DNA of 64,000 nucleotides. It comes from an uncultured Pseudomonadota bacterium. Its GTDB lineage: Bacteria > Desulfobacterota > Binatia > Binatales > Binataceae. Made by a program: the position numbers and the translations under genes. The notes under the pieces are model-generated. The model was not told the DNA's origin and made no database searches. It was given only the letters and a program-made list of their open reading frames with translations. This document shows, piece after piece, positions 5,323 to 26,365 of the stretch. Each line of letters starts with the position of its first letter. Position 1 is the first letter of the stretch. The DNA is taken from contig CAWDWL010000031.1 in assembly GCA_963805995.1 (NCBI GenBank), positions 4,663-68,662 on the forward strand, read 5' to 3'.

Positions 5323-5357
5323 GACCACCGATTAACATGCTTTGAAACCAACTTGCC

Positions 5358-9238: not shown

Positions 9239-9369
9239 GTCGGGTAAATGATTGGGGATTGGCCGCGGCGAACAAATGGCTAGCTGATTCCGGGCACACC
9301 ACCATCAGGGCCGCGCAGTTGACCCGCGTCAACTCCGCCCGGAACCGGATATCCGCCGCGCCGCTGGAT

Positions 9370-9867: not shown

Positions 9868-9969
9868 TGAGGGGAAGATACGCCGCGACGCATCGATCGG
9901 CAAGTCCGGCTGGCGCATTAAAGCGGCGGTCCAGGAAAAAACTGGACCAATGGGCGGCTAACGTCCACA

Positions 9970-10356
9970 ATGAACCTCAAGAGGTCAGTTGTGCCAAAGT
10001 TTCCTTCTCCGACCGGCCAGGATTTCCTGCGCGTCTTTGACGAACTCTTCGATGAGTTGTTGATTGACCCCTGGCAGGTTCCGGCCAGCGAGCAGGAACC
10101 GGCGGTGGTGCTCGAACGCAGCAACGCCTACGAGGTTCGCCTGTCCACCGGCCCGTTCAAGCCCTCCGACGTGGAACTGGTGGTCAGTGAGCACCGCTTG
10201 ACGGCGCGCGCGCGCCGCGGCGACAACCTGTGGGAACGTTCGCTGACCTTCACGGATGCGATCGCAACGGAAAAGGTTACCGCCAAGTGGGCTAACCGGA
10301 TTCTAACGGTCTTGCTGCCAAAACAACCCAAGCGGCCGCGGTCCCGACGTAAGTAG
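9970..10356 (+). CDS. Hsp20 / alpha-crystallin family small heat-shock protein
   Basis: FDELFDE N-terminus; ERSLTF...EKVTAKWANRILTVLLPK alpha-crystallin C-terminus. Confidence 0.8.
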   Translation: MNLKRSVVPKFPSPTGQDFLRVFDELFDELLIDPWQVPASEQEPAVVLERSNAYEVRLSTGPFKPSDVELVVSEHRLTARARRGDNLWERSLTFTDAIATEKVTAKWANRILTVLLPKQPKRPRSRRK

Positions 10357-10390
10357 CGGCTGTCCAATGCCATGATGATGGGTAACACCG

Positions 10391-12925
10391 ATGCCCGGAC
10401 AAACCGATCCGCCTCCAGAGTCCAAACCCGAATTGCAGACCGCGCCGCCGGCGCCGGAGCTGACCGCCGCCGAATTGCGCGGCCTGGCCCCGGTTTCGCC
10501 CGCCGAGCTCGAACGCGCCGCCGCGATTTCTCATGACGAGGAACTGCTCGGCCAGGAGCGCGTGTTCAGCGCGGTTCGGCTCGCGATTAACATCCAGGCG
10601 CCAGGCTATAACGTTTTCGCCACCGGGGTGCGAGGGTCTGCCGAGCGCGAAGCGATCCTGCGCATCTTGCGCGAGAAGGCGGCGACCATGCCGACTCCGG
10701 GGGACTGGGTTTACGTCAACAATTTCCAAACTCCCGAAGCGCCGATTGCTATCTATCTCAAGCCCGGTCAGGGCCGCGACCTGCGCGATCGGATGGCCGA
10801 GTTGGTCCTCTACGTCAAAGAGCAGCTCCCCAAGGCGTTTCGCCAGGAAGACTTCGATCAGGAGCGCAACGCGTTGCGCGACAAGTACAATAAGCTGGCC
10901 CAGGAGCTGTTCACCAAACTGGAAGCGCGGGCCAAGGAAAAAGGGTTCGCGATCAACGCCGCGCCCAACGGCCAGTTGATCTTCATCCCGATGTTCGACG
11001 GCAAGGTGCCGGATTCGCCTGAAATCATGCAGCACGAGATGGAGCGCCTGAGCGACGAGCAGCGCGCCGATCTGGGCAAGCGCCAGGGCGAGTTGCAGGA
11101 AGAGTTTCTGACCGTGATTCGCCGCCAGCAGGAAATCATGCAGGAGCTGGTCAAGGACATCCGGGCGATCGAGCGCTCCTTCGCCAGCCGCGTCATCACC
11201 CCGGCAGTCGAAGGGCTGGGCCGGCGGTTCGAAAACAGCGCGGTAACCAAATACCTCCAACAGGTCGCGGACCACATGCTGACCCACCTGGATCGGTTCC
11301 GCGAGGCTCCCCCCGAGGGGCAGCAGGCGCCTGGCAATCCGCTCGCGATGATGATGGCCTCACAGACGGGGCCGCGCTTTCCGGAGTACCAGGTCAACCT
11401 GCTGGTCGATAACTCCGAGCGCCACGGCGCGCCGGTCATCAGCGAGAACGCGCCCACCTATAGCAACTTGTTCGGCGCCATCGAGCGCTGGGCCGATCCG
11501 ATGGGCCGCACTTCCACCAACTTCACCCGCATCATCGCCGGCTCCTTCCAAAAGGCGCATCAAGGCTTCCTGGTGATCGATCTTGAAGATGCGATCGTTG
11601 AGCCCGGGGTCTGGAAGACTCTCAAGCGCAGCCTCAAAACGGGCTTCATGACGATCGAAACCTTCGAGCCCTATCAATTCTTCTTCAGCAGCGGGCTCAA
11701 GCCCGAACCAATCGAGATTCGCAACAAGGTGGTGGTTCTGGGCACTCGCTACCTCTACAATCTGCTTTACTTTAACGACACGGACTTCCCCGAATTGTTC
11801 AAGATCAAGGCCGAGATTCGGCCCGTGATCGACGCCAAAGACGACGCCGTAAGACATTACGCGGCGCGAGTGGCATGGCTGGTCCGCAACGAAAGCCTCC
11901 CGCCCTTTGATGGCGCCGCCCTGGCCCGTATCGTCGAGTTCGGGATGCGTCTGGCCGGGGAACGCGGCCGGGTGCTGACCCTGATGGAGCCCATTGACGA
12001 CCTGGCGCGGGAGTCCGCCTACTTCGCGCGCGCCGAAGGCGCCAATGAGGTCACCGCGCATCATGTCGAACGGGCGCTGGCCGAGCGCATCCTGCGGCTT
12101 AACTACGTCGAGGAGGAATTGCGCCGCCTGATCACCGAGCGCGTCATTATCGTCGATCTGAAAGGCTCCAAGGTCGGCCAGATCAACGGCCTGGCGGTGA
12201 TCGACGTGGGCGGCTACGCATTTGGACGTCCGTCGCGGGTTACCGCCACCGTGGCGTTGGGCCTGTCCGGCATTATCAATATAGAGCGCGAGGCCCGGCT
12301 TTCCGGATCGACCCACGACAAGGGCATCATGATTCTGTCCGGATTTCTGCGCAATCGTTTCGGCCAGGAGTTTCCAGTCGCGATGAGCGCGAGCATCTGC
12401 TTTGAGCAATCCTATTCCGGAATCGACGGCGACAGCGCCAGTTCAACCGAACTTTACGCGTTGCTCTCGGCCGTGAGCGGGGTGCCCATCCGGCAGGACC
12501 TGGCGGTCACCGGATCGGTCGATCAATACGGCAACGTGCAGGCGATCGGCGGCGCCAACGAAAAGGTCGAAAGCTTCTACTGGTTGTGCAAGGTGGTTGG
12601 ATTGACCGGTACCCAGGGCGTGATGGTGCCGCGCGCCAACATCAACAACCTGGTGCTTCAGGCCGAAGTGGCGGCGGCGGTGCAGCGCGGGGAGTTTCAC
12701 ATCTATCCGATCGATCACATCGACCACGGCATCGAACTCCTGACCGGGATCAAGGCGGGCACGATCACGGAGCCTGGGACGATCAACTACCTGGTCCATC
12801 AGCGGCTCAAGAAGATGGCGGAGCACACGCGTGGGGCACCCGGCGGAGAAATGCGATTTATTGCGGAACAGGCCAGTCCATCCAAGCCACCCGCCCCTCC
12901 CGAGCCCCCGAATCCGCCGCGCTAG
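10391..12925 (+). CDS. Lon-like protease (S16; LonC/YcbZ-type with coiled-coil insert)
   Basis: GQER, DWVYVNNF, coiled-coil insert, VGQINGL, PSRVTA, GIDGDSASSTE (catalytic Ser) and downstream EKVESF (Lys). Confidence 0.9.
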   Translation: MPGQTDPPPESKPELQTAPPAPELTAAELRGLAPVSPAELERAAAISHDEELLGQERVFSAVRLAINIQAPGYNVFATGVRGSAEREAILRILREKAATMPTPGDWVYVNNFQTPEAPIAIYLKPGQGRDLRDRMAELVLYVKEQLPKAFRQEDFDQERNALRDKYNKLAQELFTKLEARAKEKGFAINAAPNGQLIFIPMFDGKVPDSPEIMQHEMERLSDEQRADLGKRQGELQEEFLTVIRRQQEIMQELVKDIRAIERSFASRVITPAVEGLGRRFENSAVTKYLQQVADHMLTHLDRFREAPPEGQQAPGNPLAMMMASQTGPRFPEYQVNLLVDNSERHGAPVISENAPTYSNLFGAIERWADPMGRTSTNFTRIIAGSFQKAHQGFLVIDLEDAIVEPGVWKTLKRSLKTGFMTIETFEPYQFFFSSGLKPEPIEIRNKVVVLGTRYLYNLLYFNDTDFPELFKIKAEIRPVIDAKDDAVRHYAARVAWLVRNESLPPFDGAALARIVEFGMRLAGERGRVLTLMEPIDDLARESAYFARAEGANEVTAHHVERALAERILRLNYVEEELRRLITERVIIVDLKGSKVGQINGLAVIDVGGYAFGRPSRVTATVALGLSGIINIEREARLSGSTHDKGIMILSGFLRNRFGQEFPVAMSASICFEQSYSGIDGDSASSTELYALLSAVSGVPIRQDLAVTGSVDQYGNVQAIGGANEKVESFYWLCKVVGLTGTQGVMVPRANINNLVLQAEVAAAVQRGEFHIYPIDHIDHGIELLTGIKAGTITEPGTINYLVHQRLKKMAEHTRGAPGGEMRFIAEQASPSKPPAPPEPPNPPR

Positions 12926-13272
12926 CCGCGGCGCGGAAGCGACCGTCGTCGCGGGGTTCTCACATCCCGCGCTCCGCGTGAGAGCGTCGAAAAATGGGCT
13001 CGTGCAGTGCGGTGCAGCCGCATTCTCACGAAGGCTTGGGTACCCTGCCTTTGTCCGGGCCGGTCGATAATCTCCAGAAACCTCACCATATCCCACAGTA
13101 TTGGAGGCGGTCGGGAGATGTCCAAAGATAAGCGCGTCCGCGCCTGCGGCTACGGTCCGCCGGCGCACGCCGGGAGCGCTGCCAGCCACAGTTGAAAGAC
13201 GGTTGCAAAAATCACTCAAAAACGATCGTCGTTCTTGACTTGATGTGCGCTGGCAGTCATAGCTGGTTCGCG

Positions 13273-13899
13273 ATGGTTGGCGGGGCACGTTGGATTCTGA
13301 TTGGGACCGCGATGATGCTGGTTGCGGGCGCACTATCATGGAGTTGCGGCGGCGGCGGCAGCAACAATTGCGTGGTTAATAATTCCGGCCTTCCCATCAA
13401 TTTCTGCGGGGCGCCCAGCACCCCGGGTCCAGCCCTCCTGAGCATCGCAATTTGTCCGGGGCCGCCACCTACGCCGACGCCATTCAACACTTCCACCGCT
13501 ACCCCAATCGCCACCGCGACGGAGGTGATCTGTCCATCCCCGGTCTCGACCGCGGTGATTGAAGGAGGTACGGCGTTTTTTCACGCGATTGGAATCTACA
13601 ACAACGCCTCCACTCAGGACCTTACCAACAGCGCATCGACCACCTGGATCACTGACGATGTTGCCGTAGCGATACCGAATTCGACCCCGGCGGGCAGCTA
13701 TTTTGCGATCGGCGCCGGCAGCGCCATGATCAATGCGGTTTCCGGCGGAGTTTCAGGATCGGGAGCTATGCTCGCGGTCACGCCGACTACGACGCCGGCC
13801 ATTACGGCGACCGCCACCCCAGCGGCCACGCCAACTCCCCCAGGTGGCACCGCGGCCGACGCACCATACTCCGACTGGTCGCAGGACCAACAACCATAG
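13273..13899 (+). CDS. Putative lipoprotein with Ig-like (Big-like) domain and Pro/Thr-rich linkers
   Basis: Hydrophobic signal ending LSWS-C-GGGG; FHAIGIYNNASTQDLT...TW Ig-like pattern. Start uncertain. Confidence 0.65.
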   Translation: MVGGARWILIGTAMMLVAGALSWSCGGGGSNNCVVNNSGLPINFCGAPSTPGPALLSIAICPGPPPTPTPFNTSTATPIATATEVICPSPVSTAVIEGGTAFFHAIGIYNNASTQDLTNSASTTWITDDVAVAIPNSTPAGSYFAIGAGSAMINAVSGGVSGSGAMLAVTPTTTPAITATATPAATPTPPGGTAADAPYSDWSQDQQP

Positions 13900-14008
13900 G
13901 CTCATCGCAGGTTCCCGGGCACGTGACTTCAGGATGCGGGCGCTTGAGTGTAACCTTGGACCCTCTTGATCATTGACCTTGCTGCTCGAATAGGCAGCAT
14001 ATGAACTT

Positions 14009-14509
14009 ATGAACGCCATCGACATCATTCGCCGCCGCCTTAAAGAGGATCGCATCCCCGAAACGCCAGAAGATGTGGGAAGGAAGAAGAAGCGTCCGCG
14101 TGAAGTCGCCTTTATGGACGTCAACCTGTGCTTTCCGTGCGGCAAATGCCCGGAGTTCTGTCCCGTGCAATGTATCGAATACCTGCAGCCTGGCAGTGTG
14201 CCGGGACGGGGAGTTCAACCGGTTCAGGACCGTTTCCAGGAGTGTATCGGATGCTACATCTGCGTTGAGGTCTGCGCGTTGCTGACCGATTACGATGCGG
14301 TCCGGATGTATGACACCGACCTGGTCGAGAAGGTGCTCAATGTCAAAATCGGCGATACGGCTCCCCCTGAGCCGATTCCGGCCGAGCCTTACGAGGAGTA
14401 TTTTTCGGAGGGCGGACTTTATCGCCAAGTCGGCAAAGGTTCGCGAATCCGCGAGAAGATGACCGCCGAAGAGCGCGCCATCTTCGCCCGCGAGCGGGTC
14501 AAAGGCTAG
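14009..14509 (+). CDS. 2x[4Fe-4S] dicluster ferredoxin-like protein
   Basis: CFPCGKCPEFCP and CIGCYICVEVC motifs. Confidence 0.85.
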   Translation: MNAIDIIRRRLKEDRIPETPEDVGRKKKRPREVAFMDVNLCFPCGKCPEFCPVQCIEYLQPGSVPGRGVQPVQDRFQECIGCYICVEVCALLTDYDAVRMYDTDLVEKVLNVKIGDTAPPEPIPAEPYEEYFSEGGLYRQVGKGSRIREKMTAEERAIFARERVKG

Positions 14510-14676
14510 GCGCGAGACCGGGTTAAAGCCGAAGTATTTTTCCGGCAGCGGTGCCAAGCCGGCGATCGTGGCAGAACGTTGTTTGTCTGTGGGCTGATAG
14601 CTTGTGGATGCCTCTGTTTGAGCGGTTTGACTACACCTCCTGACGCTTATACCTTCTTAGATGCCCGGACTAACAT

Positions 14677-15297
14677 ATGGAAAAACAAGCGCGGCGGGCG
14701 CAGGTACTGCGGCATGCCAAACGGATTTTCGCGCGTAAGGGTTATCATCGAACCAATGTCGCCGATATCATCAGCCGCGCTCGCATAGCACGAGGCACGT
14801 TCTATCTCTACTTCGAGAACAAGAAAGACCTTTTCGAGGAACTGCTCGAACAAGTGGTGCGTGAGTTGGCGCATCGGATTCAACGCATTCGCTTGGGGCC
14901 CGGCGAGCCCGATCCCGCGGAACAATTGCGGGAAAATCTGCGCCGGGTAATGTATTTTGTGCTTAACGAGCGCGACCTCACCAACATCTTGCTCAGCCAT
15001 GCGCTGGGCTTCGACCCGGAGCTCGACGAGCGCATCCAGAGCTTTTACGATCGCGTGGCGGCGCAAATTCAGCGCTCGCTCGATTTAGGTATCACGATGG
15101 GCCTGGTGCGTGAATGCGACACGCGCACGACGGCCTATTGCATCCTGGGCGGAGTGAAAGAGACCATTGCCCAGCTATCGCGCCACGCGCCCCCCGATAT
15201 CGACCGCCTGGTTGAAGAAATCCTGCGTTTTGGACTGAGCGGAGTGGCGCGGCCGGAGCTACTGGAGACGCTGCGCGCCAGCGTGATCCCAGCATAA
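14677..15297 (+). CDS. TetR/AcrR family transcriptional regulator
   Basis: AKRIFARKGYHRTNVADIISRARIARGTFYLYFENKKDLF HTH. Confidence 0.93.
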   Translation: MEKQARRAQVLRHAKRIFARKGYHRTNVADIISRARIARGTFYLYFENKKDLFEELLEQVVRELAHRIQRIRLGPGEPDPAEQLRENLRRVMYFVLNERDLTNILLSHALGFDPELDERIQSFYDRVAAQIQRSLDLGITMGLVRECDTRTTAYCILGGVKETIAQLSRHAPPDIDRLVEEILRFGLSGVARPELLETLRASVIPA

Positions 15298-15325
15298 GAG
15301 GAGACGCTTTTTTTTCGCGTAACTA

Positions 15326-15341
15326 GACTGACATGTCAGTC
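15326..15341. promoter_or_regulatory. Perfect 16-bp palindrome GACTGACATGTCAGTC, candidate TetR operator
   Basis: Exact inverted repeat containing the ATG (15333) of the HAD gene, immediately downstream of tetR. Confidence 0.65.
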
Positions 15342-16064
15342 CAAAATGGCAATTCCCATCGCGCCGCTGCGTTCTACGATCTGGACGGCACTTTGGTGGA
15401 CGTTAACCTCCTCCACGCCACCGCCTACATGCTGGCTAACGTCGGCGAATGGAAGGGGCGATTTACCCACCTGGCCACCCTGGCGTTGAGGCTGCCGCGA
15501 ATTTACGCCGCCGAACGCCATGATCGGCGTCTGCTTAACGTGACCATGTTCGAGGTCTTCAAGGGCATCTCGCGCGACCGCCTGATGGTGCTGGGCGAGG
15601 AGTACTGCGAGCGGGTGCTGATGAATCGGTTTTATGCTCAGGCCCTGGACCTGCTCGAAGGGAACCGGGCGGCGGGGCTCAAGCCGGTTCTGGTCACCGG
15701 ATCGCCCGATTTCGTCGTCGCCGCGCTCGCGCGCCGCCTGGGCGTCGAAGTCTTTGCGGCCAACCGCCTGGCCTTCAGCCGCAATCTGGCCAGCGGGCGG
15801 CTGCGTGAACCGATCATGGCCGGCGAGGAGAAGGCCCGCTGGTGCGAAGAGTATGCCGGCGGCCAGGGTCTGCGCCTTAAGGACTGCTGGGGGTACGCCG
15901 ACTCTTACTACGATTTGCCCTTTCTGACCGCGCTGGGTCATCCGGTGGCGGTCAATCCGGACCGCCGGCTCGAGGCCACGGCGCGCGACCGCCAATGGCC
16001 AATCATCCGCTTTGCCGGTGTCCGGGCGGCCGCGACCGCGCGGCGGTATGATGGAGAATCTTAA
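15333..16064 (+). CDS. HAD-IB family hydrolase (lipid phosphatase-like)
   Basis: FYDLDGTL motif I, LVTGS motif II, K, and YADSYYDLPFL motif IV, followed by PVAVNPD. Confidence 0.9.
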   Translation: MSVQNGNSHRAAAFYDLDGTLVDVNLLHATAYMLANVGEWKGRFTHLATLALRLPRIYAAERHDRRLLNVTMFEVFKGISRDRLMVLGEEYCERVLMNRFYAQALDLLEGNRAAGLKPVLVTGSPDFVVAALARRLGVEVFAANRLAFSRNLASGRLREPIMAGEEKARWCEEYAGGQGLRLKDCWGYADSYYDLPFLTALGHPVAVNPDRRLEATARDRQWPIIRFAGVRAAATARRYDGES

Positions 16065-17704
16065 TGGCGCAAGCCGAACGCAAACTTAAAGAACTCAAGA
16101 CCGCCGCCCTGAAGCATGAGATCGGGGCGCGCCGCGACCTGGTGGTGACGCTTAATACCCGCTCGCAGCCGCGCCTGATTTCTTACGGCGATGATTTCCT
16201 GCTGGCCAAGCTGCCGCCGGGAACGCGGGTGATCTACCCGCCGCCGCCGCTTGACGCGCTGCCCGATCCAGACGTAGCAATTCGCTACGCGCTGTTGCAT
16301 CCCGAAAACGCCGACCCGCTCTTCGCGCAGCTCAACCCCAACATGCGCGTCACCATCGCGCTTGACGACATCAGCCTGCCGCTGCCGCAGATGCAGCGCC
16401 CCGACTTGCGCGAGCGGATGCTTAACGTGGTGTTGCAGACGCTGGCCGATTATGGCGTTGACGACGTTCACCTGATAGTCGCCAATTCGCTGCATCGCCG
16501 CATGACCGAAAATGAGATTCGCCGGATGGTGGGCGAGCGGGCGTTTAAAGCTTACTGGCCCGACCGGTTGTACAATTTCGACGCCGAGAACCGCGCCGAA
16601 GTGGTGATGCTGGGCAAGACCGACCACAACGAGGAAGTGTGGCTCAGCAAGCGCGCGGCCGAGTCGGACCTGTTGCTCTATCTCAACATCAACCTGGTGC
16701 CGATGGACGGCGGGCACAAGTCGGTGGCGGTGGGGCTGGCCCCGTATCAGAGCCTGCGCCACCATCATAATCCCGCCACCTTGCGCGAGAGCAATTCCTA
16801 CATGGATCCGACCCGCTCGGGGCTGCATCGCAGCGCCGACCGCATGGGGAAAATCGTCAATCGCAACGTCAACATCTTTACCATCGAGACCGCGATCAAC
16901 AACCGCATGTACGGCGGGATGCTGGATTTCCTGCACAAAAACGAGGACCGCTTCAGCGACTGGGACCGGGTGCGCATGAACACCTTCAAGTGGACCCTGG
17001 GCAACCTTTCCGATGGGATGCGGCGCGAAGCGCTGCGCCGCTATTCCTCGCCCTTCGGCATGACCGGGGTGTGGGCGGGCGAAACCGAAGCGGTGCATCA
17101 GAAGGCGCTGGCGCGGGTATTCCAGCAGTACGCGGTTCCGGTCAAGGGCCAGAGCGACATCTTAATCGTGGGCGTGCCCTTCATCTGCCCCTACAACGTC
17201 AATTCGATCATGAATCCGGTGCTGGTCCAGTGCACCGGGCTGGGCTACCTGTTCAACATGTACCGCAACAAGCCGCTGGTGCGGCCGGGCGGTACGTTAA
17301 TCATCTGTCATCCGCTGCGCGACGAATTCCATCCCGAGCATCATCCGAGCTACGTGGAATTCTTTCACCGGTGCCTGGCCGAGACTACCGACGCCGTGGA
17401 GCTGGAAAAGAGCTTCGAAGCGGAATTCGCGCGCAATCCGACCTATATCCACATGTATCGCTACGGCCATGCGTACCACGGGGTGCATCCGTTCTACATG
17501 TGGTATTGGGGCGAGCCCGGCCGCCAGCACGTGGGCCGGATAATCGCGGCGGGATGCGAGGAGCCGGAGGTGGCGGCGCGGCTGGGTTGGGAAGCGGCCG
17601 ACACCCTGGATCAGGCGATCGCGATGGCGACCTCCGATCTGGGCCGCTCGGCCTCCATCACCTACCTGCATCTGCCGCCATTGGTAATTGCCGATGTCGA
17701 ATAA
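16064..17704 (+). CDS. Lactate racemase (LarA / DUF2088) domain protein
   Basis: VTIALDDISLP, IVANSLHRRMT and MDGGHKS match the LarA N-terminal domain pattern. Translationally coupled (TAATG) to the HAD gene. Confidence 0.8.
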   Translation: MAQAERKLKELKTAALKHEIGARRDLVVTLNTRSQPRLISYGDDFLLAKLPPGTRVIYPPPPLDALPDPDVAIRYALLHPENADPLFAQLNPNMRVTIALDDISLPLPQMQRPDLRERMLNVVLQTLADYGVDDVHLIVANSLHRRMTENEIRRMVGERAFKAYWPDRLYNFDAENRAEVVMLGKTDHNEEVWLSKRAAESDLLLYLNINLVPMDGGHKSVAVGLAPYQSLRHHHNPATLRESNSYMDPTRSGLHRSADRMGKIVNRNVNIFTIETAINNRMYGGMLDFLHKNEDRFSDWDRVRMNTFKWTLGNLSDGMRREALRRYSSPFGMTGVWAGETEAVHQKALARVFQQYAVPVKGQSDILIVGVPFICPYNVNSIMNPVLVQCTGLGYLFNMYRNKPLVRPGGTLIICHPLRDEFHPEHHPSYVEFFHRCLAETTDAVELEKSFEAEFARNPTYIHMYRYGHAYHGVHPFYMWYWGEPGRQHVGRIIAAGCEEPEVAARLGWEAADTLDQAIAMATSDLGRSASITYLHLPPLVIADVE

Positions 17705-20700
17705 CGGGAATTCGCAACCTGCCGCCGCGCGCGGCGGCAAGAGCATGCCCACGCTGGAGCGTGCGCTGACCGGCCGGCGTATCCTGCTGACCGGCGCGAC
17801 CGGCTTTTTGGGCAAGACCTTTCTCTACGTGCTGCTGCGCCATCATCCGGAGATCGAGCGCATCTATCTGCTGATCCGCGGCGACCGGCGTTCCAGCCAG
17901 AACCGCTATCAGCGCGAAGTGGTGGATTCTCCGGCCCTGGAGCCGCTGCGCACCGAGATGGGCGCGCGCTACGAGCGCTACCTGGAAGATCGCATCGTGG
18001 TGGTACCCGGAGACATTTCCGAAGAAGGGCTGCTGGCGGAAGGGGTCGAGCCGTTCAAGCGCGGCCAGATCGACGCGGTGGTGCATTGCGCGGGGCTGGT
18101 CAACTTCGAGGCCTCGCTGGAAAAGGCGCTGGTCGCCAACACCCTGGGCGTCGCCAACGTGATCGAGTTCTGCCGCAAGTTGGACGCCAAACTGCTCCAC
18201 ATCTCCACCTGTTACGCGGCGGGCAGCGCCGACGGCCATCGTTACGAAGAAGATATACCGATCGATTGGTGCCCCGACGATCGCCAGACCCACTTCAACG
18301 TGCAGCGCGAGATTCGCGACGCCCGCGCCGCGATCGACCGGATCGAGGCCGCTTCGCGCGAGCAGGCCAACTACGCCGAGTTCCGCGACAGCCACAACGA
18401 CGGCGATCAGCGCGAAGGCCTGAGCGAAGGCCGGCGCAAGCAATGGGTTGAGGACCAGCTCAAGAAGGATGGGCTCGCGCGCGCGGAGCGCTGGGGATGG
18501 CCCAACAGTTACAGCTACACCAAGAGCATGGGCGAACAACTGGTGCTGGCGGCCCGCGGTGAGCTGGAGGTGACGGTGGTGCGGCCGGCGGTGATCGAGA
18601 GCGCGATCACCGATCCTTTTCCGGGCTGGAACCAGGGCGTCAACACCAGCGCGCCGCTCACCTGGTTGTCCGGCGAGGGCTTCCGCTTCTATCCCGCGCG
18701 TCCCGATCTGGTGCTGGATGTGATTCCGGTCGATATGGTGGCCCATCCGATGGTGCCGATTCTGGCCGCCTTGCTACTCGGCCGGCAGGAGCCCATCTAC
18801 CAGCTCGGCAGCTCGGATTGTAACCCGCTTACCATGAAACGGCTGGTCGAACTGTGTGGACTGGCCAATCGCGAGTATCAGCGTCACGGCCGCGGCACCT
18901 TGGGCAAGCTGGCGCCGCATCTGGAAGCGATCGTGGTTTCCAAGCAAACCTACGATTTCGCCAGTCTGACCGCTCCGCAGTTCATCAAGCAGGCGGTAGA
19001 TTTTGCCAAGACCGCGGCCAAGATCGATTCCGCGCGCACCCGCCGCTTCGACGATCGGCTGGACAAGCTGCTGGATCAGATCGAAATCGCCAGGTCGCTG
19101 GTCAACGTTTACCTGCCTTACATCCGGGACCTGGTCTACACTTTTCATTGCCGCAACATCCGCGCGCTTTACGCGCGGCTGGGCGCCGCCGACGCGCGCA
19201 AGCATCCGTTCGCGCCCGAGAAGATCGACTGGCGCGACTACTGGATCAACGTGCACGTTCCCGGATTGCGCAAAGAAATTTTCCCGCAACTGGATTTGCA
19301 CACTCGCGGGCGGGTGCGGGCGGCGCGCCGCCATCGCAACCTGATCGAATTGCTCGAGACGGCGGCCGGCAAATACGGTTCGCGCACCGCGCTGACGGCG
19401 CATTATCAGTCCGGTGAGCACGCCTCGCTCACCTACCGGGAAGTGCGCGACCGCGCGGCGCGGGCCGCGCTGATGCTGGCCAATCGCGGGGTGCGGCCGG
19501 GCGATCGGGTGCTGCTGATCGGCGAGAACTCGCCCGACTGGGCAGTGGCTTTCTTCTCGATCCTTTACGCGGGCGCAGTCGCCGTGCCGCTCGATCAGCA
19601 GGTCTCACCCGATGAGTTGAGTCCGATCTGCAGAATCGCCGAGCCGCGGGCCGCCCTGCTTTCCGAAGCGGTCCATCGCCGGCTCTCCAAGACCATCGCG
19701 GAGATGCCCGGTGACATCGTCCAGCTCGAGTTCGACGAACTGGCCCGTCCATTTCTGATGCGCGGCGGGGCGGCGGCCAAACCCGAGATCGACCGCAAGG
19801 CCCTGGCGGCAATTTTCTTTACCTCTGGCAGCACCGGAGCGCCCAAGGGCGTGATGCTGACTCACGGCAATCTGACCGCCGAGGTATCGATGCTCTCGCG
19901 CGTCTTCGTGCTCAACGAAGACGAGGTGGTGCTTTCCCTGCTGCCGTTGCATCACACCTTCGAATTCACCTGCGGGATGCTGCTGCCGCTGTCGAGCGGA
20001 TCGAAGATCGTACATCCAATTGGCGTGGACGCCGCCAACCTGTCCAGTACGCTGGCACAGGTGCGACCGACCGCGCTGATCGGCGTGCCCGCGCTGTGGC
20101 ACGCAATTCATCGCCGCATCCTGGACGAGGTCGAGTCGCGCGGCGCGCTGGTGCATTCGGTTTTCGACGGCTTGCGCGATCTCAACCGCAAGCTGGCAAC
20201 GGATTTGGGTCTCAACCTGGGCCGGCTGCTGTTCCGCGCCGCCCATCAGGCGTTGGGCGGGCGCTTGCGGCTGGCGGTCAGCGGCGGCGCCGCGCTGCCC
20301 GACCGGGTCGCGGAATTCTTCAACGACCTCGGCCTGCATCTGCTCGAAGGTTATGGACTGACTGAAGCCGGGCCGGTGCTGAGCGCGGCGCATCCCGACG
20401 AACCGCTCAATCCGGGTTCGGTCGGCAAACCGCTGGTGGGCATTGAGGTCAAGTTGCAGACCGAGCCCGATGCGGAGGTCGGAGAAATTCTTGCGCGGGG
20501 TCCCAACGTGATGGCCGGATACTATCGCGATCGGGCGGCGACCGACGCCGCGCTCAAGGACGGATGGCTGCACACCGGCGATTTGGGGCGTTTCGACGAT
20601 CAGGGCCGCCTGTATATCGTCGGGCGCGCCAAGGATGTCATCGTCGATGCGGGCGGGAACAACGTCTACATCGAAGAGGTTGAGGAATCCTACAGCCATT

Positions 20701-22016
20701 CCGCCTATCTGAAGGAACTGGCGGTGGTGGGACTGAAGACTCCCGGCGGCGAGCAGGTCGCGGCGCTGGTGGTGCCGGCATACGCACGCGGACAAAGCCG
20801 CCGTACCGTTCACGATCAGCTTCAGGCCCACTTTGCCAAGGTCGGCGCGAGTCTCAATCCGCATAAGCGCATCCGGATTCTGCGCTTTACCGACAGCGAT
20901 TTGCCGCGCACCAGGACCCGCAAGATAAAGCGCGCCGAGGTCGCCGAGCTGCTGGGCCGGATGATTGCCCAGAGCACCGAAGACCGCCATGCCGAAGTCG
21001 ACGTGGAGCCGTGGCTGGTGGAAACTTTGTCGCAGGTGACCGCGGATGGCACCCGCATCTGCTCGGCCACGCGCCTGATCGAGGACTTGGGACTCGATTC
21101 GCTGGCGCTGGCCGAACTGGGCGAGCACGTGGCGGCGCGCACCGGACGGGAGATGACGCCGGAAGAACTGGGTAATCTGCGCACGGTGGAGGATCTCCAG
21201 CAGGCGATTGCGCAAAGCGCGAAGCGTCCCCGATTGCCTTCCTATGCGCATCTGGCGGAGCCGTACACGCCCCAGTTGCCGGGCTTGCTGCGCCGGCTGG
21301 GCGACGCCGCGGTGCGCGGCGCGCAGCGCGCACTGCTCTCGGGATGGCTGGCGCCGCGGATTATCGGACGCGGCAACGTTCCCGCCAATCGCAACGTGCT
21401 GGTGGTCGCCAACCATTGCAGCCATGTGGATTTCGCGGTGGTGCGCGGGGCGTTGGGTCCGATGGGCGATCAGCTCGTGGTGCTGGCGGCGCGCGATTAC
21501 TTCTTCAACACGCCGATCCGGCGATTCGTTGCGCATAACTTCAGCCCGCTCATTCCCTTCGATCGTGAACGCGCGCAGCTTGAATCCCTCGATCAGGCCT
21601 TGGCGCAGCTCGCCAGCGGACGCAGCGTGCTGCTGTTCCCCGAAGGCACGCGTTCGACCGACGGCGCGCTGCAGGAATTCAAAAGCGGCGCCGGCTATCT
21701 GGCGTTGCGCAGCGGATGCGACGTCTTGCCGATCCATATCAGCGGCACCCACGAGGTGCTGGGCAAGGGCAGCGTGGTGCCGCGGCATCATCCGGTGGAG
21801 GTGCGGATTGGTGGTGTAATCAGTAATCAGCGGCTGCGCGAGATTGCCGAAAGCAGCAGCGGCGCGGGCGCCTATCGCTCGGTATCGGATTTCCTGCGCT
21901 CGACCATCGCGGGCTTGCCCTTGGGTCACAAGAGTTTCAAGGAGCGCACGGGTTTGAAACATCGCGAACCGGTAAAGCATCGCCATCGCGAGCCCGCCCA
22001 CGCCCGCCAGACGTAA
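17694..22016 (+). CDS. elbD: Multifunctional fatty acyl reductase + adenylation + ACP + acyltransferase (ElbD-like ether-lipid enzyme)
   Basis: LTGATGFLGK and YSYTK (male-sterility SDR); FTSGSTGAPKG, EGYGLTE and HTGDLG (AMP-binding); LGLDSL (phosphopantetheine site); NHCSHVD and FPEGTRS (PlsC). Same domain order as Myxococcus xanthus ElbD. Confidence 0.85.
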   Translation: MSNNGNSQPAAARGGKSMPTLERALTGRRILLTGATGFLGKTFLYVLLRHHPEIERIYLLIRGDRRSSQNRYQREVVDSPALEPLRTEMGARYERYLEDRIVVVPGDISEEGLLAEGVEPFKRGQIDAVVHCAGLVNFEASLEKALVANTLGVANVIEFCRKLDAKLLHISTCYAAGSADGHRYEEDIPIDWCPDDRQTHFNVQREIRDARAAIDRIEAASREQANYAEFRDSHNDGDQREGLSEGRRKQWVEDQLKKDGLARAERWGWPNSYSYTKSMGEQLVLAARGELEVTVVRPAVIESAITDPFPGWNQGVNTSAPLTWLSGEGFRFYPARPDLVLDVIPVDMVAHPMVPILAALLLGRQEPIYQLGSSDCNPLTMKRLVELCGLANREYQRHGRGTLGKLAPHLEAIVVSKQTYDFASLTAPQFIKQAVDFAKTAAKIDSARTRRFDDRLDKLLDQIEIARSLVNVYLPYIRDLVYTFHCRNIRALYARLGAADARKHPFAPEKIDWRDYWINVHVPGLRKEIFPQLDLHTRGRVRAARRHRNLIELLETAAGKYGSRTALTAHYQSGEHASLTYREVRDRAARAALMLANRGVRPGDRVLLIGENSPDWAVAFFSILYAGAVAVPLDQQVSPDELSPICRIAEPRAALLSEAVHRRLSKTIAEMPGDIVQLEFDELARPFLMRGGAAAKPEIDRKALAAIFFTSGSTGAPKGVMLTHGNLTAEVSMLSRVFVLNEDEVVLSLLPLHHTFEFTCGMLLPLSSGSKIVHPIGVDAANLSSTLAQVRPTALIGVPALWHAIHRRILDEVESRGALVHSVFDGLRDLNRKLATDLGLNLGRLLFRAAHQALGGRLRLAVSGGAALPDRVAEFFNDLGLHLLEGYGLTEAGPVLSAAHPDEPLNPGSVGKPLVGIEVKLQTEPDAEVGEILARGPNVMAGYYRDRAATDAALKDGWLHTGDLGRFDDQGRLYIVGRAKDVIVDAGGNNVYIEEVEESYSHSAYLKELAVVGLKTPGGEQVAALVVPAYARGQSRRTVHDQLQAHFAKVGASLNPHKRIRILRFTDSDLPRTRTRKIKRAEVAELLGRMIAQSTEDRHAEVDVEPWLVETLSQVTADGTRICSATRLIEDLGLDSLALAELGEHVAARTGREMTPEELGNLRTVEDLQQAIAQSAKRPRLPSYAHLAEPYTPQLPGLLRRLGDAAVRGAQRALLSGWLAPRIIGRGNVPANRNVLVVANHCSHVDFAVVRGALGPMGDQLVVLAARDYFFNTPIRRFVAHNFSPLIPFDRERAQLESLDQALAQLASGRSVLLFPEGTRSTDGALQEFKSGAGYLALRSGCDVLPIHISGTHEVLGKGSVVPRHHPVEVRIGGVISNQRLREIAESSSGAGAYRSVSDFLRSTIAGLPLGHKSFKERTGLKHREPVKHRHREPAHARQT

Positions 22017-22126
22017 AGGGGCGCGGACAGAGTCACGCACGTTCCTTGGGCCATCGATAGCGGTGCATGGTCCGCGGACTACGGCTTTGCTTGCGCCACG
22101 AGTGAGTGGCGGGCCCTACTCACCGT

Positions 22127-25100
22127 TCACTTGAGAACGAAACTTCCATCTGGGCCATCGCCACTGCTGGTGTAAGGTAGGAACGGCGGATTGAGCGCCT
22201 GCAGGTATGATGCGCCGGGCACCGAGCCAGCCGGCGCTACAAAGGTAAACTTGGTGGCGCTTATAATTCTTAGTGGTATACGGGGAGTACCGTCGGGTTC
22301 GATACCTCCAAGATTTTTCACGACACCGGCGAACTGAGTATTGAAGAGGTTGATTACAGTCAGCGGGGAGAAGCCGCTTCCAACAACCGTAATGGTCGAT
22401 CCCGACTGGGCGAGCGAAATTACCGAGATTTTAGCTCCGATCGAAACCGAGACCGCGTTGCTTTTTTTGGTATAGGCATTGGAAGTCCCGGCGTTGCTCA
22501 CTACAAACGAGCCGGGGCCAGTTAGCGGCGACTTGGGCATCCCGGTCGCCGGCAGCGGGAAGATCAGCAGCGAAGCGCTCAGCCCCACGTCACCCGGCTT
22601 GAGGAAGAACGGTCCGACCTTACCACCGGGGCAGGCGCAGAACAGGTCGATCCCTACGCCATTGGCGATGTCAAAACCGCTGCCGCCCAGGTGCACATTT
22701 GTCCCTTGCGAGACCACGGTCTCGACGTTGTTGGTGGCATAGCTCGGATCGCTGCTGGTCGCCGCCAAGGGAATACTGTTGATGGTTTTGATGGTCGGAA
22801 TTCCCGCCGCGGGCGAGCCTTGCAGCAGGGCCGGCACCGAATTGGACCCCAGGTACCCCGCGTCCGTATTGACGACCTGCACATCGACAAAGCCTCGGCC
22901 CAGCGTGGTCGTGGCCGGGACACTGACCGTGAGTTGAGTCGGCAGACTAGTTGTGGTCGGAATCAAGGGACCGGCATTGACAACTCCACCCGACGTGGCA
23001 ATGAAGAAGTTGACCACCGAGCCTTTGGTGAAGCTGGTCCCGACGATATTGAACGTCGAACCCACCTCAACAATTGCGGGGATGTTTGCGATCTGCGGCG
23101 TGCCTGGAACAACCGTAGCGGTTGCGCTGGGTGTTGGAATAGCGGTCGGCGTCGGCGTGCCGGCGGGAGTTTCGGTTGCCGTCGATGTTGGTGTGAGCAC
23201 TCCGGTTGGCATTGGCGTCGGGATCGCTGATGGAGTGGGAGTAGCCGGTACCTGACCAGCTCCGGTCAACATAACCCTACGCGGACCGTTGGCATCGTCG
23301 TCGTCGACGGTCAACGTAGCGCTGCGAGGACCAGCAGCCGCTGGCGTGAAGGTAACAATAATAGTGCAACTCGCGCCTGCCGGTAGGGACGATGGACACG
23401 AATTGGCCTGGGAGAAGTCGCCGCCGGCGGTGATAGTCGACACTGAGAGCGTAGTGGTCTGATGGTTGGTCAAGGTGACATCCTGGTTGGTATGGCTGCC
23501 CAGCGGTTTGGTACCAAAGTCGACACTGGTGGGAAGCGCGGTCACGGGTTGGAACTCATAGGCGCCCATGTCGATGATGAAGGTTTTCTTGCCGGAGCCG
23601 TCAACGACGCGCGGTAGGCCGTCCAGATCGGTGGGTAAAAGATTGGGCGCGGAATTCAGTCCTACGTCGATTCCCGGCGACCCGGCCACCAGACGGTAGT
23701 TGCTTAAAGCCGCGTTCACAAATTGCGGTTGCACCGAAATATTTCCCGATACGCCAACCTGTCCCGCGCAGCTCCCATCAAATGCCGTTGCGCCAACGCT
23801 GAATGCATCGTTATTGTGGAATCCCGGTGGCGTCGATTTTGGATCGCAGAAGACCGCGTTTTCCGTCGCCCTCCCGATCAATAGGTTGTTGACCATCGCG
23901 GCGTCCGCAGAAAAACCTTCTAGATAAACGGCCGAACCTTTACCCAGATTGGCGCGATTATTAACAATTGTATTGTTTACCAAAATCGGAGTTGAACTAA
24001 AGAGCCGCACATATATGCCGCCGCCCTGATCCGCGGTGTTATCAATGATGAGGTTTTGGAGCATTATCGGGTTCGAATCGGATTCCATCGACACACCGCC
24101 ACCTTGAGCAGCGGGAGAAACGTCGCCGACGGTGTTGCCGATGATGATGTTATTTTCGATAATCGGCGTTCCGGCATCGCTCAAATCAATTCCGCCACCA
24201 TTTCCGGGCCAGGAGTTCTCCTCGATGATGTTTGACAAGATTTGGGCGGAGCCGGGGTCGTTCAATTCGATTCCACCACCTCCCGCTCCTCCGATGCATC
24301 CGGTTTGTTGTCCGTTGTTCGAGATGACGTTGTTCATAATTATGGCAGACGATAATTGAGCAAAGATCCCTCCGCCTCCACCGCATCCATTATTATGCGT
24401 GATTACATTCCCGGAGATGGTTGGAGAGCTGTTCACGATATCGATGCCACCGCCGTTAGAGGGGAGGCCTGAAGTCTGACCATTTGTAATAGTAAAACCG
24501 GATAGGACGGAACCGTTCCCCTCGGTTGAGTGAAATACCACCACAGGTCCTTGCTGACGGCCGTCGATGGCTGTCGCGTTGGGGCCGTCCGAGCTGATTA
24601 CGGTGATAAGCTTACCCTCGAAATCGAGGTTCTCAAAATAAGTTCCGGGAGATACTTTGACGATGTCGCCGTTGGATGCAGCGTCAATTCCGGCTTGGAT
24701 GGTGGGAAAGTCGCCGGGAACGTCTAGGACCATGGCCACGGCAGTCGGGGTTGCGGAGGGAGTCGGAATGGGAGTCGCAGAAGCCTGGCCGATTCCGTTC
24801 AGCGCAACCTTACGCGGACCGTTAGTGTCGTCGTCGTCAATGGTGAGCGCGGCGGTGCTGGGACCCAAGGCGGTCGGCGTAAAGATAACCGCAATAGTGC
24901 AACTTGCGCCTGCCGGCAGGAAGGATGGGCAAGAATTGGTTTGGGAGAAATCGCCGCCAGCCGTGATCGTCGACACTGACAGCGCAGCCGTCTGGTGGTT
25001 GATTAGAGTGACGTTCTGGCTGGTATGACTGTTGAGTGTTTGTGTTCCGAAGTCGATACTGGTCGGAAGAGCCGTCACCGGTTGGAACTCATAGACGCCC

Positions 25101-26365
25101 ATGTCGATGATGAAGGTCTTTTTGCCGGAGCCGTCAACGATGCGGGGCAGGCCGTCCAGATCGGTGGGTAAAAGATGGGGCGCGGAGTTCAGGCCCACAT
25201 CGATTCCCGGCGACCCGGCCACCAGGCGGTAGTTGTTTTGGGATTCGTTAACAAATTGCGGCGGGGCCGAAATGTTCCCCGAGACTCCAATCTGACCTGC
25301 GCAGCTTCCGTCAAAACCCTTGGCCAAAACGCTGAAAGCATCGTTGTTTTCAAAATTCGGCGGGCCTGAGGTCGGATCGCACAAGACGGCAGTCTCGCGA
25401 ATCAGGCCAATGAACAGATTGTTTACGAACTCGGCGCCAAAGCCCAGAGTATAAATTGCAGAGGCTTGCCCCTGCGCGGCGGTATTCATGGCTATTGTGT
25501 TGCTCACAAAAGTCGTCGTGGCACCGGAAGGAGCGTCCAAATATATACCGCCACCGATGGCCGCCTCATTGTTGACAATCAGATTCTGAACTATCGTGGC
25601 GTCACTGTCGTAGATGGTCATTGCGCCGCCCTGACCGCTGAAAAGATCGGCGCGGTTACTGATAATCGTATTGCTCTCGATCAGCGGACTCCCAATACCG
25701 ATAGACAAGCCGCCTCCACTGCCATTGCGCACGGAGTTGTTGACAATTAAATTCGACAAAATCATTGGGGAACCACCGCTCAAAGATATCCCGCCCCCTT
25801 CACCTCCCGAACATTCCACGACGCTATTGTTGCTGATGGTGTTGTTCTGTATTAGCGGCGATCCTGATTCAACTGCGATCCCGGCCCCATTACAGGCGCC
25901 ATTGTTCGTAATGACGTTTCCGGAGATAGTCGGGGAAGCATGGTTGATAAAAATTCCTCCGCCGTTATAACCGGTATTGAAAGTTGACGTTCCGTTGGTG
26001 AGTGTAAATCCCGTTAATGCTGCCGCGGTGGTTTCGCCAGAGGTGAAAGTGACCACCGGCGCTATATCGCCCCCGTTTATGGTAGTGATAGCAGGGCCGC
26101 CTGAGCTGATAACCGTGATCCGCTTGCCATTGAAGTTTATATTTTCAACATAGGTTCCCGGCGAGACTTCGACCGTATCGCCGTTGGACGCCAAATCGAT
26201 GCCCGCCTGGATGGTCGGCGCGTCACCTGGAACATCGATCACCTTGGCCCAGCACTCGAGCTGTCCGAGGACAAGTGCCACCGTTGCTGTCAAAAGAGCG
26301 AACAAAAACAGGTTTGGTCGCAAGAGCATGCGCACCTGAATACGCCATCTACTGAATTTAATCAA
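22127..26365 (-). CDS. Large secreted protein: 2x (right-handed beta-helix + choice-of-anchor/ASH-like Ig domain), Pro/Thr linker, ~330-aa C-terminal Ig-like region
   Basis: Signal-like N-terminus; VPGD.PTIQAGID..SNGD.V.VSPGTY.EN occurs twice; GGGI/NN repeats; IDMG.YEFQP twice; TPTPT linker. Start may be downstream (MLLRPNL). Confidence 0.85.
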   Translation of the reverse strand: MIKFSRWRIQVRMLLRPNLFLFALLTATVALVLGQLECWAKVIDVPGDAPTIQAGIDLASNGDTVEVSPGTYVENINFNGKRITVISSGGPAITTINGGDIAPVVTFTSGETTAAALTGFTLTNGTSTFNTGYNGGGIFINHASPTISGNVITNNGACNGAGIAVESGSPLIQNNTISNNSVVECSGGEGGGISLSGGSPMILSNLIVNNSVRNGSGGGLSIGIGSPLIESNTIISNRADLFSGQGGAMTIYDSDATIVQNLIVNNEAAIGGGIYLDAPSGATTTFVSNTIAMNTAAQGQASAIYTLGFGAEFVNNLFIGLIRETAVLCDPTSGPPNFENNDAFSVLAKGFDGSCAGQIGVSGNISAPPQFVNESQNNYRLVAGSPGIDVGLNSAPHLLPTDLDGLPRIVDGSGKKTFIIDMGVYEFQPVTALPTSIDFGTQTLNSHTSQNVTLINHQTAALSVSTITAGGDFSQTNSCPSFLPAGASCTIAVIFTPTALGPSTAALTIDDDDTNGPRKVALNGIGQASATPIPTPSATPTAVAMVLDVPGDFPTIQAGIDAASNGDIVKVSPGTYFENLDFEGKLITVISSDGPNATAIDGRQQGPVVVFHSTEGNGSVLSGFTITNGQTSGLPSNGGGIDIVNSSPTISGNVITHNNGCGGGGGIFAQLSSAIIMNNVISNNGQQTGCIGGAGGGGIELNDPGSAQILSNIIEENSWPGNGGGIDLSDAGTPIIENNIIIGNTVGDVSPAAQGGGVSMESDSNPIMLQNLIIDNTADQGGGIYVRLFSSTPILVNNTIVNNRANLGKGSAVYLEGFSADAAMVNNLLIGRATENAVFCDPKSTPPGFHNNDAFSVGATAFDGSCAGQVGVSGNISVQPQFVNAALSNYRLVAGSPGIDVGLNSAPNLLPTDLDGLPRVVDGSGKKTFIIDMGAYEFQPVTALPTSVDFGTKPLGSHTNQDVTLTNHQTTTLSVSTITAGGDFSQANSCPSSLPAGASCTIIVTFTPAAAGPRSATLTVDDDDANGPRRVMLTGAGQVPATPTPSAIPTPMPTGVLTPTSTATETPAGTPTPTAIPTPSATATVVPGTPQIANIPAIVEVGSTFNIVGTSFTKGSVVNFFIATSGGVVNAGPLIPTTTSLPTQLTVSVPATTTLGRGFVDVQVVNTDAGYLGSNSVPALLQGSPAAGIPTIKTINSIPLAATSSDPSYATNNVETVVSQGTNVHLGGSGFDIANGVGIDLFCACPGGKVGPFFLKPGDVGLSASLLIFPLPATGMPKSPLTGPGSFVVSNAGTSNAYTKKSNAVSVSIGAKISVISLAQSGSTITVVGSGFSPLTVINLFNTQFAGVVKNLGGIEPDGTPRIPLRIISATKFTFVAPAGSVPGASYLQALNPPFLPYTSSGDGPDGSFVLK
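23255..26245 (-). repeat. Intragenic tandem duplication of a ~1.5-kb module
   Basis: Near-identical DNA, e.g. 23548-23702 versus 25081-25235 (offset about 1533 nt, in frame). Confidence 0.85.

Follow-up and report, generated by a model that had tools for sequence, protein, structure and literature searches.

A four-gene TetR-elbB-elbC-elbD operon without elbE in the uncultured family Binataceae, a candidate ether-lipid gene set

We analyzed a 64,000-nucleotide stretch of DNA, called the window below, from an uncultured bacterium of the family Binataceae (assembly GCA_963805995.1, contig CAWDWL010000031.1, positions 4,663 to 68,662). It carries an operon in which a TetR-family regulator gene is followed by elbB, elbC and elbD, genes known from the ether-lipid (elb) operon of Myxococcus xanthus. 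The unit is an orthologue of the known elb system in a new host family and has a family-specific make-up, with the TetR gene as leader and no elbE. We consider it rather probable that the operon is the Binataceae version of the aerobic bacterial elb ether-lipid pathway, inherited within the family and operating without elbE. Its predicted output would be ether lipids.

The operon, its counterparts and its host family

The four genes lie on the forward strand. The first (14677-15297) encodes a regulator with the Pfam domains TetR_N and TetR_C_24 and ends 35 bases 5′ of elbB. The elbB gene (15333-16064) encodes an HAD-IB phosphohydrolase of 243 amino acids (aa; Pfam HAD PF12710, E 7.6e-29; NCBIfam TIGR01490, 113.6 bits with a cut-off of 98.3), and elbC (16064-17704) a LarA homologue of 546 aa, a putative nickel-pincer-nucleotide enzyme with one catalytic histidine. 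The last gene, elbD (17688-22016), encodes a multidomain enzyme of 1442 aa and starts with TTG at 17688 or ATG at 17694. The overlap between elbB and elbC is a single base, the TAA stop codon of elbB occupying 16062-16064 and the ATG of elbC starting at 16064, and elbC, with its stop codon at 17702-17704, overlaps elbD by 11 or 17 bases depending on the elbD start. Open reading frame (ORF) calls, Pfam and NCBIfam agree in placing elbB and elbC immediately 5′ of elbD on one strand. The G+C content is even across the operon (0.60–0.65), and the gene 3′ of elbD is convergent and encodes an unrelated beta-helix protein (Pfam). The TetR-elbB-elbC-elbD unit is a real, intact operon of four genes, not three. 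A preliminary description of this DNA had proposed three coupled genes at 15333-22016; the same-strand ORFs and overlapping frames support the coupling, and the unit also includes the TetR gene at 14677-15297, which had not been listed. The products named there, an HAD phosphatase, a LarA/DUF2088 protein and a multidomain protein of ~1440 aa, agree with the Pfam and NCBIfam matches.

The elb operon of M. xanthus was reportedly described by Lorenzen et al. in 2014, and elb-like clusters in Acidobacteriota (subdivisions 4 and 6) reportedly by Sinninghe Damste et al. in 2018. M. xanthus elbABCDE corresponds to MXAN_1531 to MXAN_1527, MIBiG BGC0000871 (via PMC9131029, PMC13012113 and preprint 10.64898/2026.06.23.733905). 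The genes encode a dispensable short-chain dehydrogenase/reductase (SDR; ElbA), an HAD protein (ElbB), a protein of unknown function (ElbC), a multidomain enzyme (ElbD) and a further SDR (ElbE), and the alkyl and vinyl ether lipids of this organism need ElbD and possibly ElbE (PMC9131029). The large protein of the window had been likened to M. xanthus ElbD in the order of its domains, which matches both the account in PMC9131029 and the order in the named Myxococcota and Acidobacteriota records. In both organisms elbB, elbC and elbD follow one another in the same order on one strand, a likeness drawn from the published description and from identities to loci in metagenome-assembled genomes (MAGs) of Myxococcota. 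M. xanthus also has elbA and elbE, whereas the Binataceae unit has neither; the place of elbA, a second NAD-dependent epimerase/dehydratase gene 5′ of elbB, is taken by the TetR gene.

To compare the operon with other elb clusters we scanned one genome per species with generic patterns. Among the 80 loci listed, 13 are named and have an ElbD that is complete or nearly so; the remaining 67, which are ordinary ligases or matches of lesser length, were left out. In seven of the 13 ElbD loci listed, the HAD, LarA-like and ElbD genes follow each other as immediate neighbours, in the order of the window: L031 and L042 (Polyangiaceae), L035 (Myxococcales), L032 (Bradymonadaceae), L041 (‘Deltaproteobacteria’), and L034 and L039 (Acidobacteriota). 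The synteny comparison that had been proposed as a check thus finds the same gene order in Myxococcota and Acidobacteriota. In ten loci elbC lies immediately 5′ of elbD, and the genomes of the remaining three encode an ElbC-family protein elsewhere (823, 524 and 510 bits). ElbB is 36–44% identical to the product of the HAD gene 5′ of elbC/elbD in Myxococcota and Acidobacteriota. Compared with Myxococcota MAG loci the identities are 52–56% for ElbC, 37–40% for ElbD and 42–44% for ElbB, and the ElbC homologue of Haliangium ochraceum is 59% identical. Based on the shared HAD-LarA-ElbD order, we conclude that the published ‘unknown’ ElbC is this LarA homologue and that the genes of the window are elbB, elbC and elbD.

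Published elb-like clusters cover Acidobacteriota, Poribacteria and >150 organisms (preprint 10.64898/2026.06.23.733905), and gene-cluster families 5–10 keep elbD and elbB only (Loureiro et al., 2026, the same preprint). ElbD homologues have been reported for many phyla (PMC11868695). As in Binataceae, the carriers in Acidobacteriota and Poribacteria are non-myxobacterial and combine elbD with elbB. The preliminary description spoke of a myxobacterial-type operon in an apparently non-myxobacterial genome, which in itself is no novelty, as elb-like clusters outside myxobacteria were already published. Two of the Acidobacteriota loci (L034, L039) share the B-C-D order of the window, but all three (L033, L034, L039) keep an ElbE-type SDR gene directly after elbD, which Binataceae do not. 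L032 has no candidate ElbE ORF directly after elbD, and L041 ends inside elbD. In the literature searched, no paper paired Binat* with elbD; supplementary taxon tables, which lay outside the search, may list Binatota. Among the matches listed, there was no use of ElbC and none joined ether lipids with nickel-pincer enzymes.

The host genome is a 7.34-Mb assembly of 47 contigs, 96.2% complete with 4.26% contamination. The nearest labelled homologues of its ElbD and ElbC (81–92% identity) come from Candidatus Binataceae or Binatus, and NCBI places Candidatus Binataceae in Candidatus Binatota. By these labels of the closest protein homologues the organism is not a myxobacterium, in line with the preliminary description. 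Of the 18 other Binataceae genomes, 17 encode both ElbC (over its cut-off) and ElbD (E ≤ 1e-100), with the two genes abutting each time; counting the host genome (G000), they co-occur in 18 of the 19 examined. At the same thresholds, 12 genomes from other families in this class gave neither protein. Another 150 genomes from the GTDB phylum included none that passes the ElbC cut-off; nine of them encode weaker ElbC relatives (460–560 bits). The one family genome that lacks ElbC and ElbD, G012 (92% complete), is a single case; LarC, too, is missing from it and from no other of the 31.

The arrangement TetR-elbB-elbC-elbD is kept in all six 20-kb regions that we fetched (two from same-genus and four from other-genus relatives), with differing flanks. 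The TetR gene also stands 5′ of elbB in six of six short Binataceae loci and in none of the 13 elbD loci from other phyla, Acidobacteriota clusters included, and is thus specific to Binataceae among the loci examined. ElbD identity falls with kinship, from 81–84% for full-length copies within the genus (88–90% for one split copy) to 62–69% for other genera. We also calculated a quick maximum-likelihood tree of ElbD with 21 rows, namely 12 named loci and nine Binat proteins, leaving out the partial L041 and representatives without labels. The nine Binat rows group together (SH-aLRT support 100) and fall outside a second clade (97) that unites all rows from Myxococcota, Acidobacteriota, Bradymonadaceae and ‘Proteobacteria’; long branches were flagged, including the one on which L037 joins the Binat clade. 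The ElbD phylogeny proposed earlier as a check therefore keeps Binataceae apart from Myxococcota and Acidobacteriota. The family-wide presence and the separate ElbD clade fit a long residence of the elb unit in Binataceae rather than a recent import.

To find an elbE elsewhere in the genome we used a profile of eight ElbE proteins, which gave one strong match (225 bits, G000:C5). This protein scores 453 bits on the HpnA model TIGR03466, where ElbE proteins reach 230–240 bits and stay under the cut-off of 367.65. Its identity to an ElbE is 32%, compared with 42–57% between the other seven ElbE proteins and the reference ElbE (L035), and its gene closes an operon with squalene-hopene cyclase, Dxr, two squalene/phytoene-synthase-family genes and an amine-oxidase-family gene. 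The match is therefore ruled out as an ElbE orthologue and is the HpnA of what we read as a hopanoid operon; this protein could still substitute for ElbE. Among the 18 family relatives, 17 gave matches at the HpnA level (209–245 bits) and G004 gave none at E ≤ 1e-40. Thus, the genome search for elbE that had been proposed returned HpnA only, across the family as sampled, and the earlier remark that no stand-alone ElbE gene follows elbD is correct, the downstream gene being that of the beta-helix protein. A genome of another family of the same class, G029, encodes a protein with 416 bits on the ElbE profile (G029:C46:45268-46254), far over the HpnA level; ElbC and ElbD were not found in it at the thresholds used.

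The hopanoid-type operon (G000:C5:474000-491000, L118, genes at 7922-16436 on the reverse strand) also includes a zinc-type alcohol dehydrogenase gene. From the squalene-hopene cyclase/HpnA operon, the host probably makes hopanoids. In a term search, the words ether, plasmalogen, wax, fatty alcohol and hopanoid were absent from the main Binatota genome paper (PMC8262859).

For a CarF/PEDS1-type desaturase we searched the genome with PF10520 and obtained no match; the same search matched two of five other elb-bearing genomes, which indicates that it works. As no such desaturase was found, saturated 1-O-alkyl (plasmanyl-type) glycerolipids or alkylglycerols would be expected rather than plasmalogens, and the plasmalogen step of the M. 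xanthus type is not expected in this host.

In two relatives from other Binataceae genera (G008, G017), genes for a zinc-phospholipase-C-like protein and a dual-specificity phosphatase lie directly 3′ of elbD on the same strand (L122 14259-15692; L124 13733-15210). They are absent from this position in the window and may represent further lipid head-group steps of the same pathway.

ElbD domains and ElbC residues

ElbD, of which the genome encodes a single full-length copy, consists of a FAR-like reductase, an adenylation domain, a carrier domain and a PlsC-type acyltransferase, in that order (Pfam), all encoded on the forward strand. The FAR1-like fatty acyl reductase region (17787-19280) comprises NAD_binding_4 at residues 34–353 and a Sterile match at 468–531 that is below the Pfam cut-off; among solved structures it is closest to 7eoz, ‘Fatty acyl-CoA reductase’ (E 5.4e-48), with residues 7–513 of 521 in the alignment. 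The adenylation (acyl-AMP/acyl-acyl carrier protein (ACP) ligase) domain (19353-20924) has AMP-binding at 556–946 and AMP-binding_C at 997–1079. It is followed by the acyl carrier domain (21012-21200; PP-binding 1109–1171) and the PlsC/AGPAT-type acyltransferase domain (21360-21743; Acyltransferase 1225–1352), the best solved relative of the latter being 5kym, a 1-acyl-sn-glycerol-3-phosphate acyltransferase (E 8e-16).

The catalytic motifs were checked in an alignment of 37 full-length homologues. Invariant or nearly invariant columns are G36, T38, G39 and F40 of the glycine-rich stretch together with Y275 and K279 in the reductase; T712/G714/P719/G721, G888-Y889-G890-E893 and G979-R980-K982 in the adenylation domain; serine S1138 in the carrier; and H1243...D1248 and P1318-E-G-T-R1322 in the acyltransferase. 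This is in agreement with the earlier statement that the expected motifs are present in every domain. Ligase and carrier activity of M. xanthus ElbD have been shown in vitro (PMC9131029).

ElbC matches Pfam Lar_N (PF09861, E 8.3e-34), as the only PF09861 protein of the genome, and passes the NCBIfam model NF052592, family ‘LarAH14/15/16’, with 824 bits (cut-off 740). We base the family call on this score and on the residues described below and not on the LarAH name, because the numbering is ambiguous between papers: PMC7583248 uses ‘LarAH14’ for a Frankia protein that was inactive, and in PMC11770544 ‘LarAH15’ denotes a gluconate epimerase from Phytophthora. The solved sequences closest to ElbC by phmmer are 9q2u/9q3k (E 5.7e-29) and 9q3j (E 6.5e-27). 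An AlphaFold2 model of ElbC (mean predicted local distance difference test score 91.9) had 9q3k_A as its best fold match (E 3.9e-33, template modelling score 0.86 normalised to the target), and the top 19 Foldseek matches at E ≤ 0.001 were all LarA-family chains, in keeping with the two-domain LarA fold. Identity to the single-histidine LarA-like structures is 18–21% in the structural alignment. The best matches in sequence and fold are thus LarA(Sp) and LarA(Bw) (PDB 9q2u/9q3k/9q3j; PMC12611868). They share with ElbC one catalytic histidine, the tethering lysine, the nickel-ligand histidine, the ribose aspartate and a C-terminal YRYxHAxHxxH motif, but have sugar-metabolism genes as neighbours where ElbC has lipid genes.

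Residue roles were assigned from a phmmer sequence alignment to LarA(Sp), read against PMC12611868. H144 (codon at 16493-16495, forward strand) aligns with the catalytic His115, K219 (16718-16720, forward) with the cofactor-tethering Lys195, H235 (16766-16768, forward) with the nickel ligand His211, and D102 with the ribose-binding Asp73. On the ligand side Y377 and H475 align with Tyr307 and His401, and P376 occupies the position of His306. Among 46 ElbC-family proteins H144 is conserved in 40, K219 in 43, H235 in 42 and D102 in all 46. For making the cofactor, the genome encodes LarB (285.9 bits, cut-off 175), LarC (209.5, cut-off 90) and LarE (325.5, cut-off 150), on contigs C4 and C40 and unlinked to the elb operon. 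Taken together, ElbC looks like a nickel-cofactor enzyme.

ElbC is the best-conserved protein of the unit, with 52–58% identity across phyla vs. 37–41% for ElbD and, among the fetched relatives within Binataceae, 82–92% vs. 62–81%. As it is the most conserved and co-occurs with ElbD in all 13 named genomes, a core catalytic role appears likelier than an accessory one. Complex prediction of ElbC with residues 1095–1442 of ElbD, run without controls, scored 0.00 against a mark of 0.32 and is evidence neither way.

Nicotinate phosphoribosyltransferase makes nicotinate mononucleotide, the source of the nickel-pincer cofactor. A gene for this enzyme lies 4.6 kb from elbD (26675-28078, reverse strand). 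In none of six relatives does it stand close to the operon, so we reject it as a linked source of the precursor; its location here is probably a coincidence.

ElbC-like proteins with 460–560 bits, under the cut-off of 740, are found in other families of the class and phylum (G022:C17:36086-37594; G042, G072, G074, G083, G111, G119, G142, G144 and G176). Similar scores accompany the divergent ElbD (30% identity) of L038 and L040.

Product and working of the operon

The eukaryotic peroxisomal ether-lipid route runs from FAR1 through GNPAT and AGPS to acyl/alkyl-dihydroxyacetone phosphate (DHAP) reductase. Both this route and the operon have a FAR1-like reductase and a glycerolipid acyltransferase, with the shared logic of a fatty alcohol and an acylated three-carbon phosphate. 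The eukaryotic route has AGPS, whereas the window has a nickel-pincer LarA homologue where the ether-forming activity would be needed. There is no AGPS-type flavoenzyme within the operon; a genome-wide search for AGPS was not made.

In the pathway that we propose, the adenylation domain of ElbD would, by homology, activate a long-chain fatty acid and load it onto the carrier domain of the same protein. The FAR1-like N-terminal domain would reduce the carrier-bound acyl chain to the fatty aldehyde or alcohol, and the PlsC-type domain would acylate a glycerol-phosphate-type acceptor. More speculatively, ElbC with its nickel-pincer nucleotide could carry out a redox-neutral ‘hidden hydride’ step on the secondary alcohol of the glycerol-phosphate intermediate and so help to swap the ester for an alkyl ether. 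The HAD-IB phosphatase ElbB would take the phosphate off the intermediate or product, and TetR, judged from its family, would repress the operon until a lipid or acyl-coenzyme A (CoA) ligand binds. Whatever is said here on the substrate of ElbC is an inference.

A more specific version, which we regard as quite unlikely, has ElbC as the missing ether-forming catalyst. ElbC would borrow the hydride from C2 of 1-acyl-glycerol-3-phosphate, giving an acyl-DHAP-like ketone in the active site; a fatty alcohol from the reductase domain of ElbD would displace the acyl group at this ketone, and ElbC would return the hydride. If this were true, ElbC would do the work of AGPS and acyl/alkyl-DHAP reductase in one redox-neutral step, and TetR-elbB-elbC-elbD would define a minimal gene set in which ElbE is accessory.

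Several points weigh against an elb ether-lipid pathway in Binataceae. The family is uncultured, and its ether lipids are predicted from genes. No ElbE orthologue was found in a 96.2%-complete genome, and disruption of elbE lowers the ether lipids of M. xanthus (PMC9131029). For M. xanthus itself, in vitro work failed to demonstrate the reductase and acyltransferase activities of ElbD, and how the ether arises is still not known (PMC9131029); in cultured Pontiella with an ElbD homologue ether lipids were not detected (PMC11868695). Contigs from an RNA library that match the operon (see below) may be contaminating DNA and cannot show strand, level or a single transcript. As for ElbC, K219, H235 and H144 each vary in three to six of the 46 family members. 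It lacks the second catalytic histidine, with V212 at that position (Asn185 in LarA(Sp)) and N208 and N210 nearby, and it lacks the carboxylate-binding Arg/Lys, L105 sitting at Lys76 of LarA(Sp). The second histidine (His174 of Lactiplantibacillus plantarum LarA) is required to racemise 2-hydroxy acids and is absent in LarAH groups 14 and 15 of Desguin 2020 (PMC12611868). Finally, LarC is encoded in 30 of 31 relatives, including all 12 without ElbC, and a second, unrelated family of nickel-pincer enzymes exists, so that the cofactor has other clients (PMC13524815). Genes for the cofactor thus do not single out ElbC, and the presence of LarC in all 12 ElbC-less relatives of the class weakens the argument that the presence of LarB, LarC and LarE makes ElbC their client.

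One alternative, unlikely in our view, assigns the operon to fatty alcohols, wax-type esters or some other neutral acyl lipid in place of ether lipids. ElbD would then reduce one acyl chain and esterify it with another, and ElbB and ElbC would act in an unrelated head-group step. The full-length alignment of the FAR1-like domain with a solved fatty acyl-CoA reductase is in accordance with this, as are the missing ElbE, the FAR and acyltransferase activities and ether step that were never reconstituted (PMC9131029) and the Pontiella result (PMC11868695). However, the acyltransferase is of the PlsC/AGPAT type, with a lysophosphatidate acyltransferase as its best relative, and not of the wax synthase type. 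In addition, ElbD strictly co-occurs with, and lies next to, ElbC and the phosphatase as in the M. xanthus ether-lipid clusters, which argues for the same product class.

Very unlikely is an Aas-like system that recycles or re-acylates membrane lipids and has gained a reductase, in which ElbC would be an ordinary co-located 2-hydroxy-acid or sugar-acid epimerase. E. coli Aas, like ElbD, joins an adenylating ligase and a PlsC-type acyltransferase in one polypeptide and uses ACP-bound acyl groups, in the reverse domain order, but it has neither the built-in carrier domain nor the extra reductase of ElbD. The NCBIfam models for acyl-[ACP]--phospholipid O-acyltransferase indeed match ElbD, but their scores of 218 and 182 bits are far under the cut-offs of 1221 and 1349 bits. 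NCBIfam also names the ElbC family ‘hydroxyacid isomerase’, while ElbC is without the second catalytic histidine and the carboxylate-binding basic residue. Nor does ElbC behave like a chance neighbour, as every one of the 13 named genomes and 18 of the 19 Binataceae genomes examined encode it together with ElbD, and it is the best-conserved protein of the unit. A recent transfer from a myxobacterium or a mis-binned contig, either of which would be uninformative on Binataceae biology, is extremely improbable: the 47 contigs, the 4.26% estimated contamination and the patchy occurrence of elb clusters across phyla leave some room for it, but the window also holds an rRNA operon, the G+C is even across the operon, 17 of 18 other family genomes have the unit with ElbD identity falling with kinship, and the ElbD clade lies outside that of Myxococcota and Acidobacteriota.

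If the operon is indeed the Binataceae version of the elb pathway, these widespread uncultured soil bacteria become candidate producers of alkyl glycerol ethers. A candidate source of non-isoprenoid alkyl glycerol ethers in soils and peats bears on the source assignment of lipid biomarkers. As the family keeps elbB, elbC and elbD and never elbE, the gene set for the ether-forming chemistry is narrowed. That the best-conserved protein of the unit is a homologue of one-histidine nickel-pincer enzymes bears on a question that dates back to the first description of the elb cluster. What makes the Binataceae operon valuable is its minimal gene set together with a nickel-pincer hypothesis for ElbC that can be tested.

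Expression and neighborhood

A scan of positions 14400-22400 gave two promoter-like and five terminator-like sites, which is not above shuffled sequence. The sole inverted repeat of at least 10 nt in 14500-15400 falls within the TetR coding region, and no TetR operator was identified there. In one soil metatranscriptome library we found short contigs at least 98.8% identical to the operon, with one or two mismatches over 166–269 bases. They map to the TetR gene (14881-15062), the elbB/elbC junction (15931-16096) and elbD (18007-18185, 19124-19392 and 19788-19974), which is a weak hint of operon expression; stretches that such contigs do not cover are uninformative. Part of the window is contained in 20 of the 24 sequencing runs listed; none holds half of its words, the best share being 0.32. 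These runs are labelled soil, peat, rhizosphere or plain ‘metagenome’.

The convergent gene 3′ of elbD (22127-26365, reverse strand) encodes a 1412-aa protein with a right-handed beta-helix and ASH/HYDIN-type Ig domains. It lies in DNA of lower G+C (0.54–0.58 vs. about 0.62) and is not conserved beside the operon in relatives. The lowest G+C of the window (0.534 at 4001-6000) falls on an ORF of the PD-(D/E)XK nuclease family (4105-5322, forward strand), which may be foreign DNA. Farther downstream, 30596-34678 (forward strand) encodes a 1360-aa fusion of CheB methylesterase, CheR methyltransferase, PAS domains, histidine kinase and receiver. Family-III CoA-transferase genes lie at 37531-40089 and 941-2179, both on the reverse strand, one of them encoding 852 aa with two domain stretches. 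The rRNA operon at 55578-61066 (forward strand) is complete, with 16S, two tRNAs, 23S and 5S.

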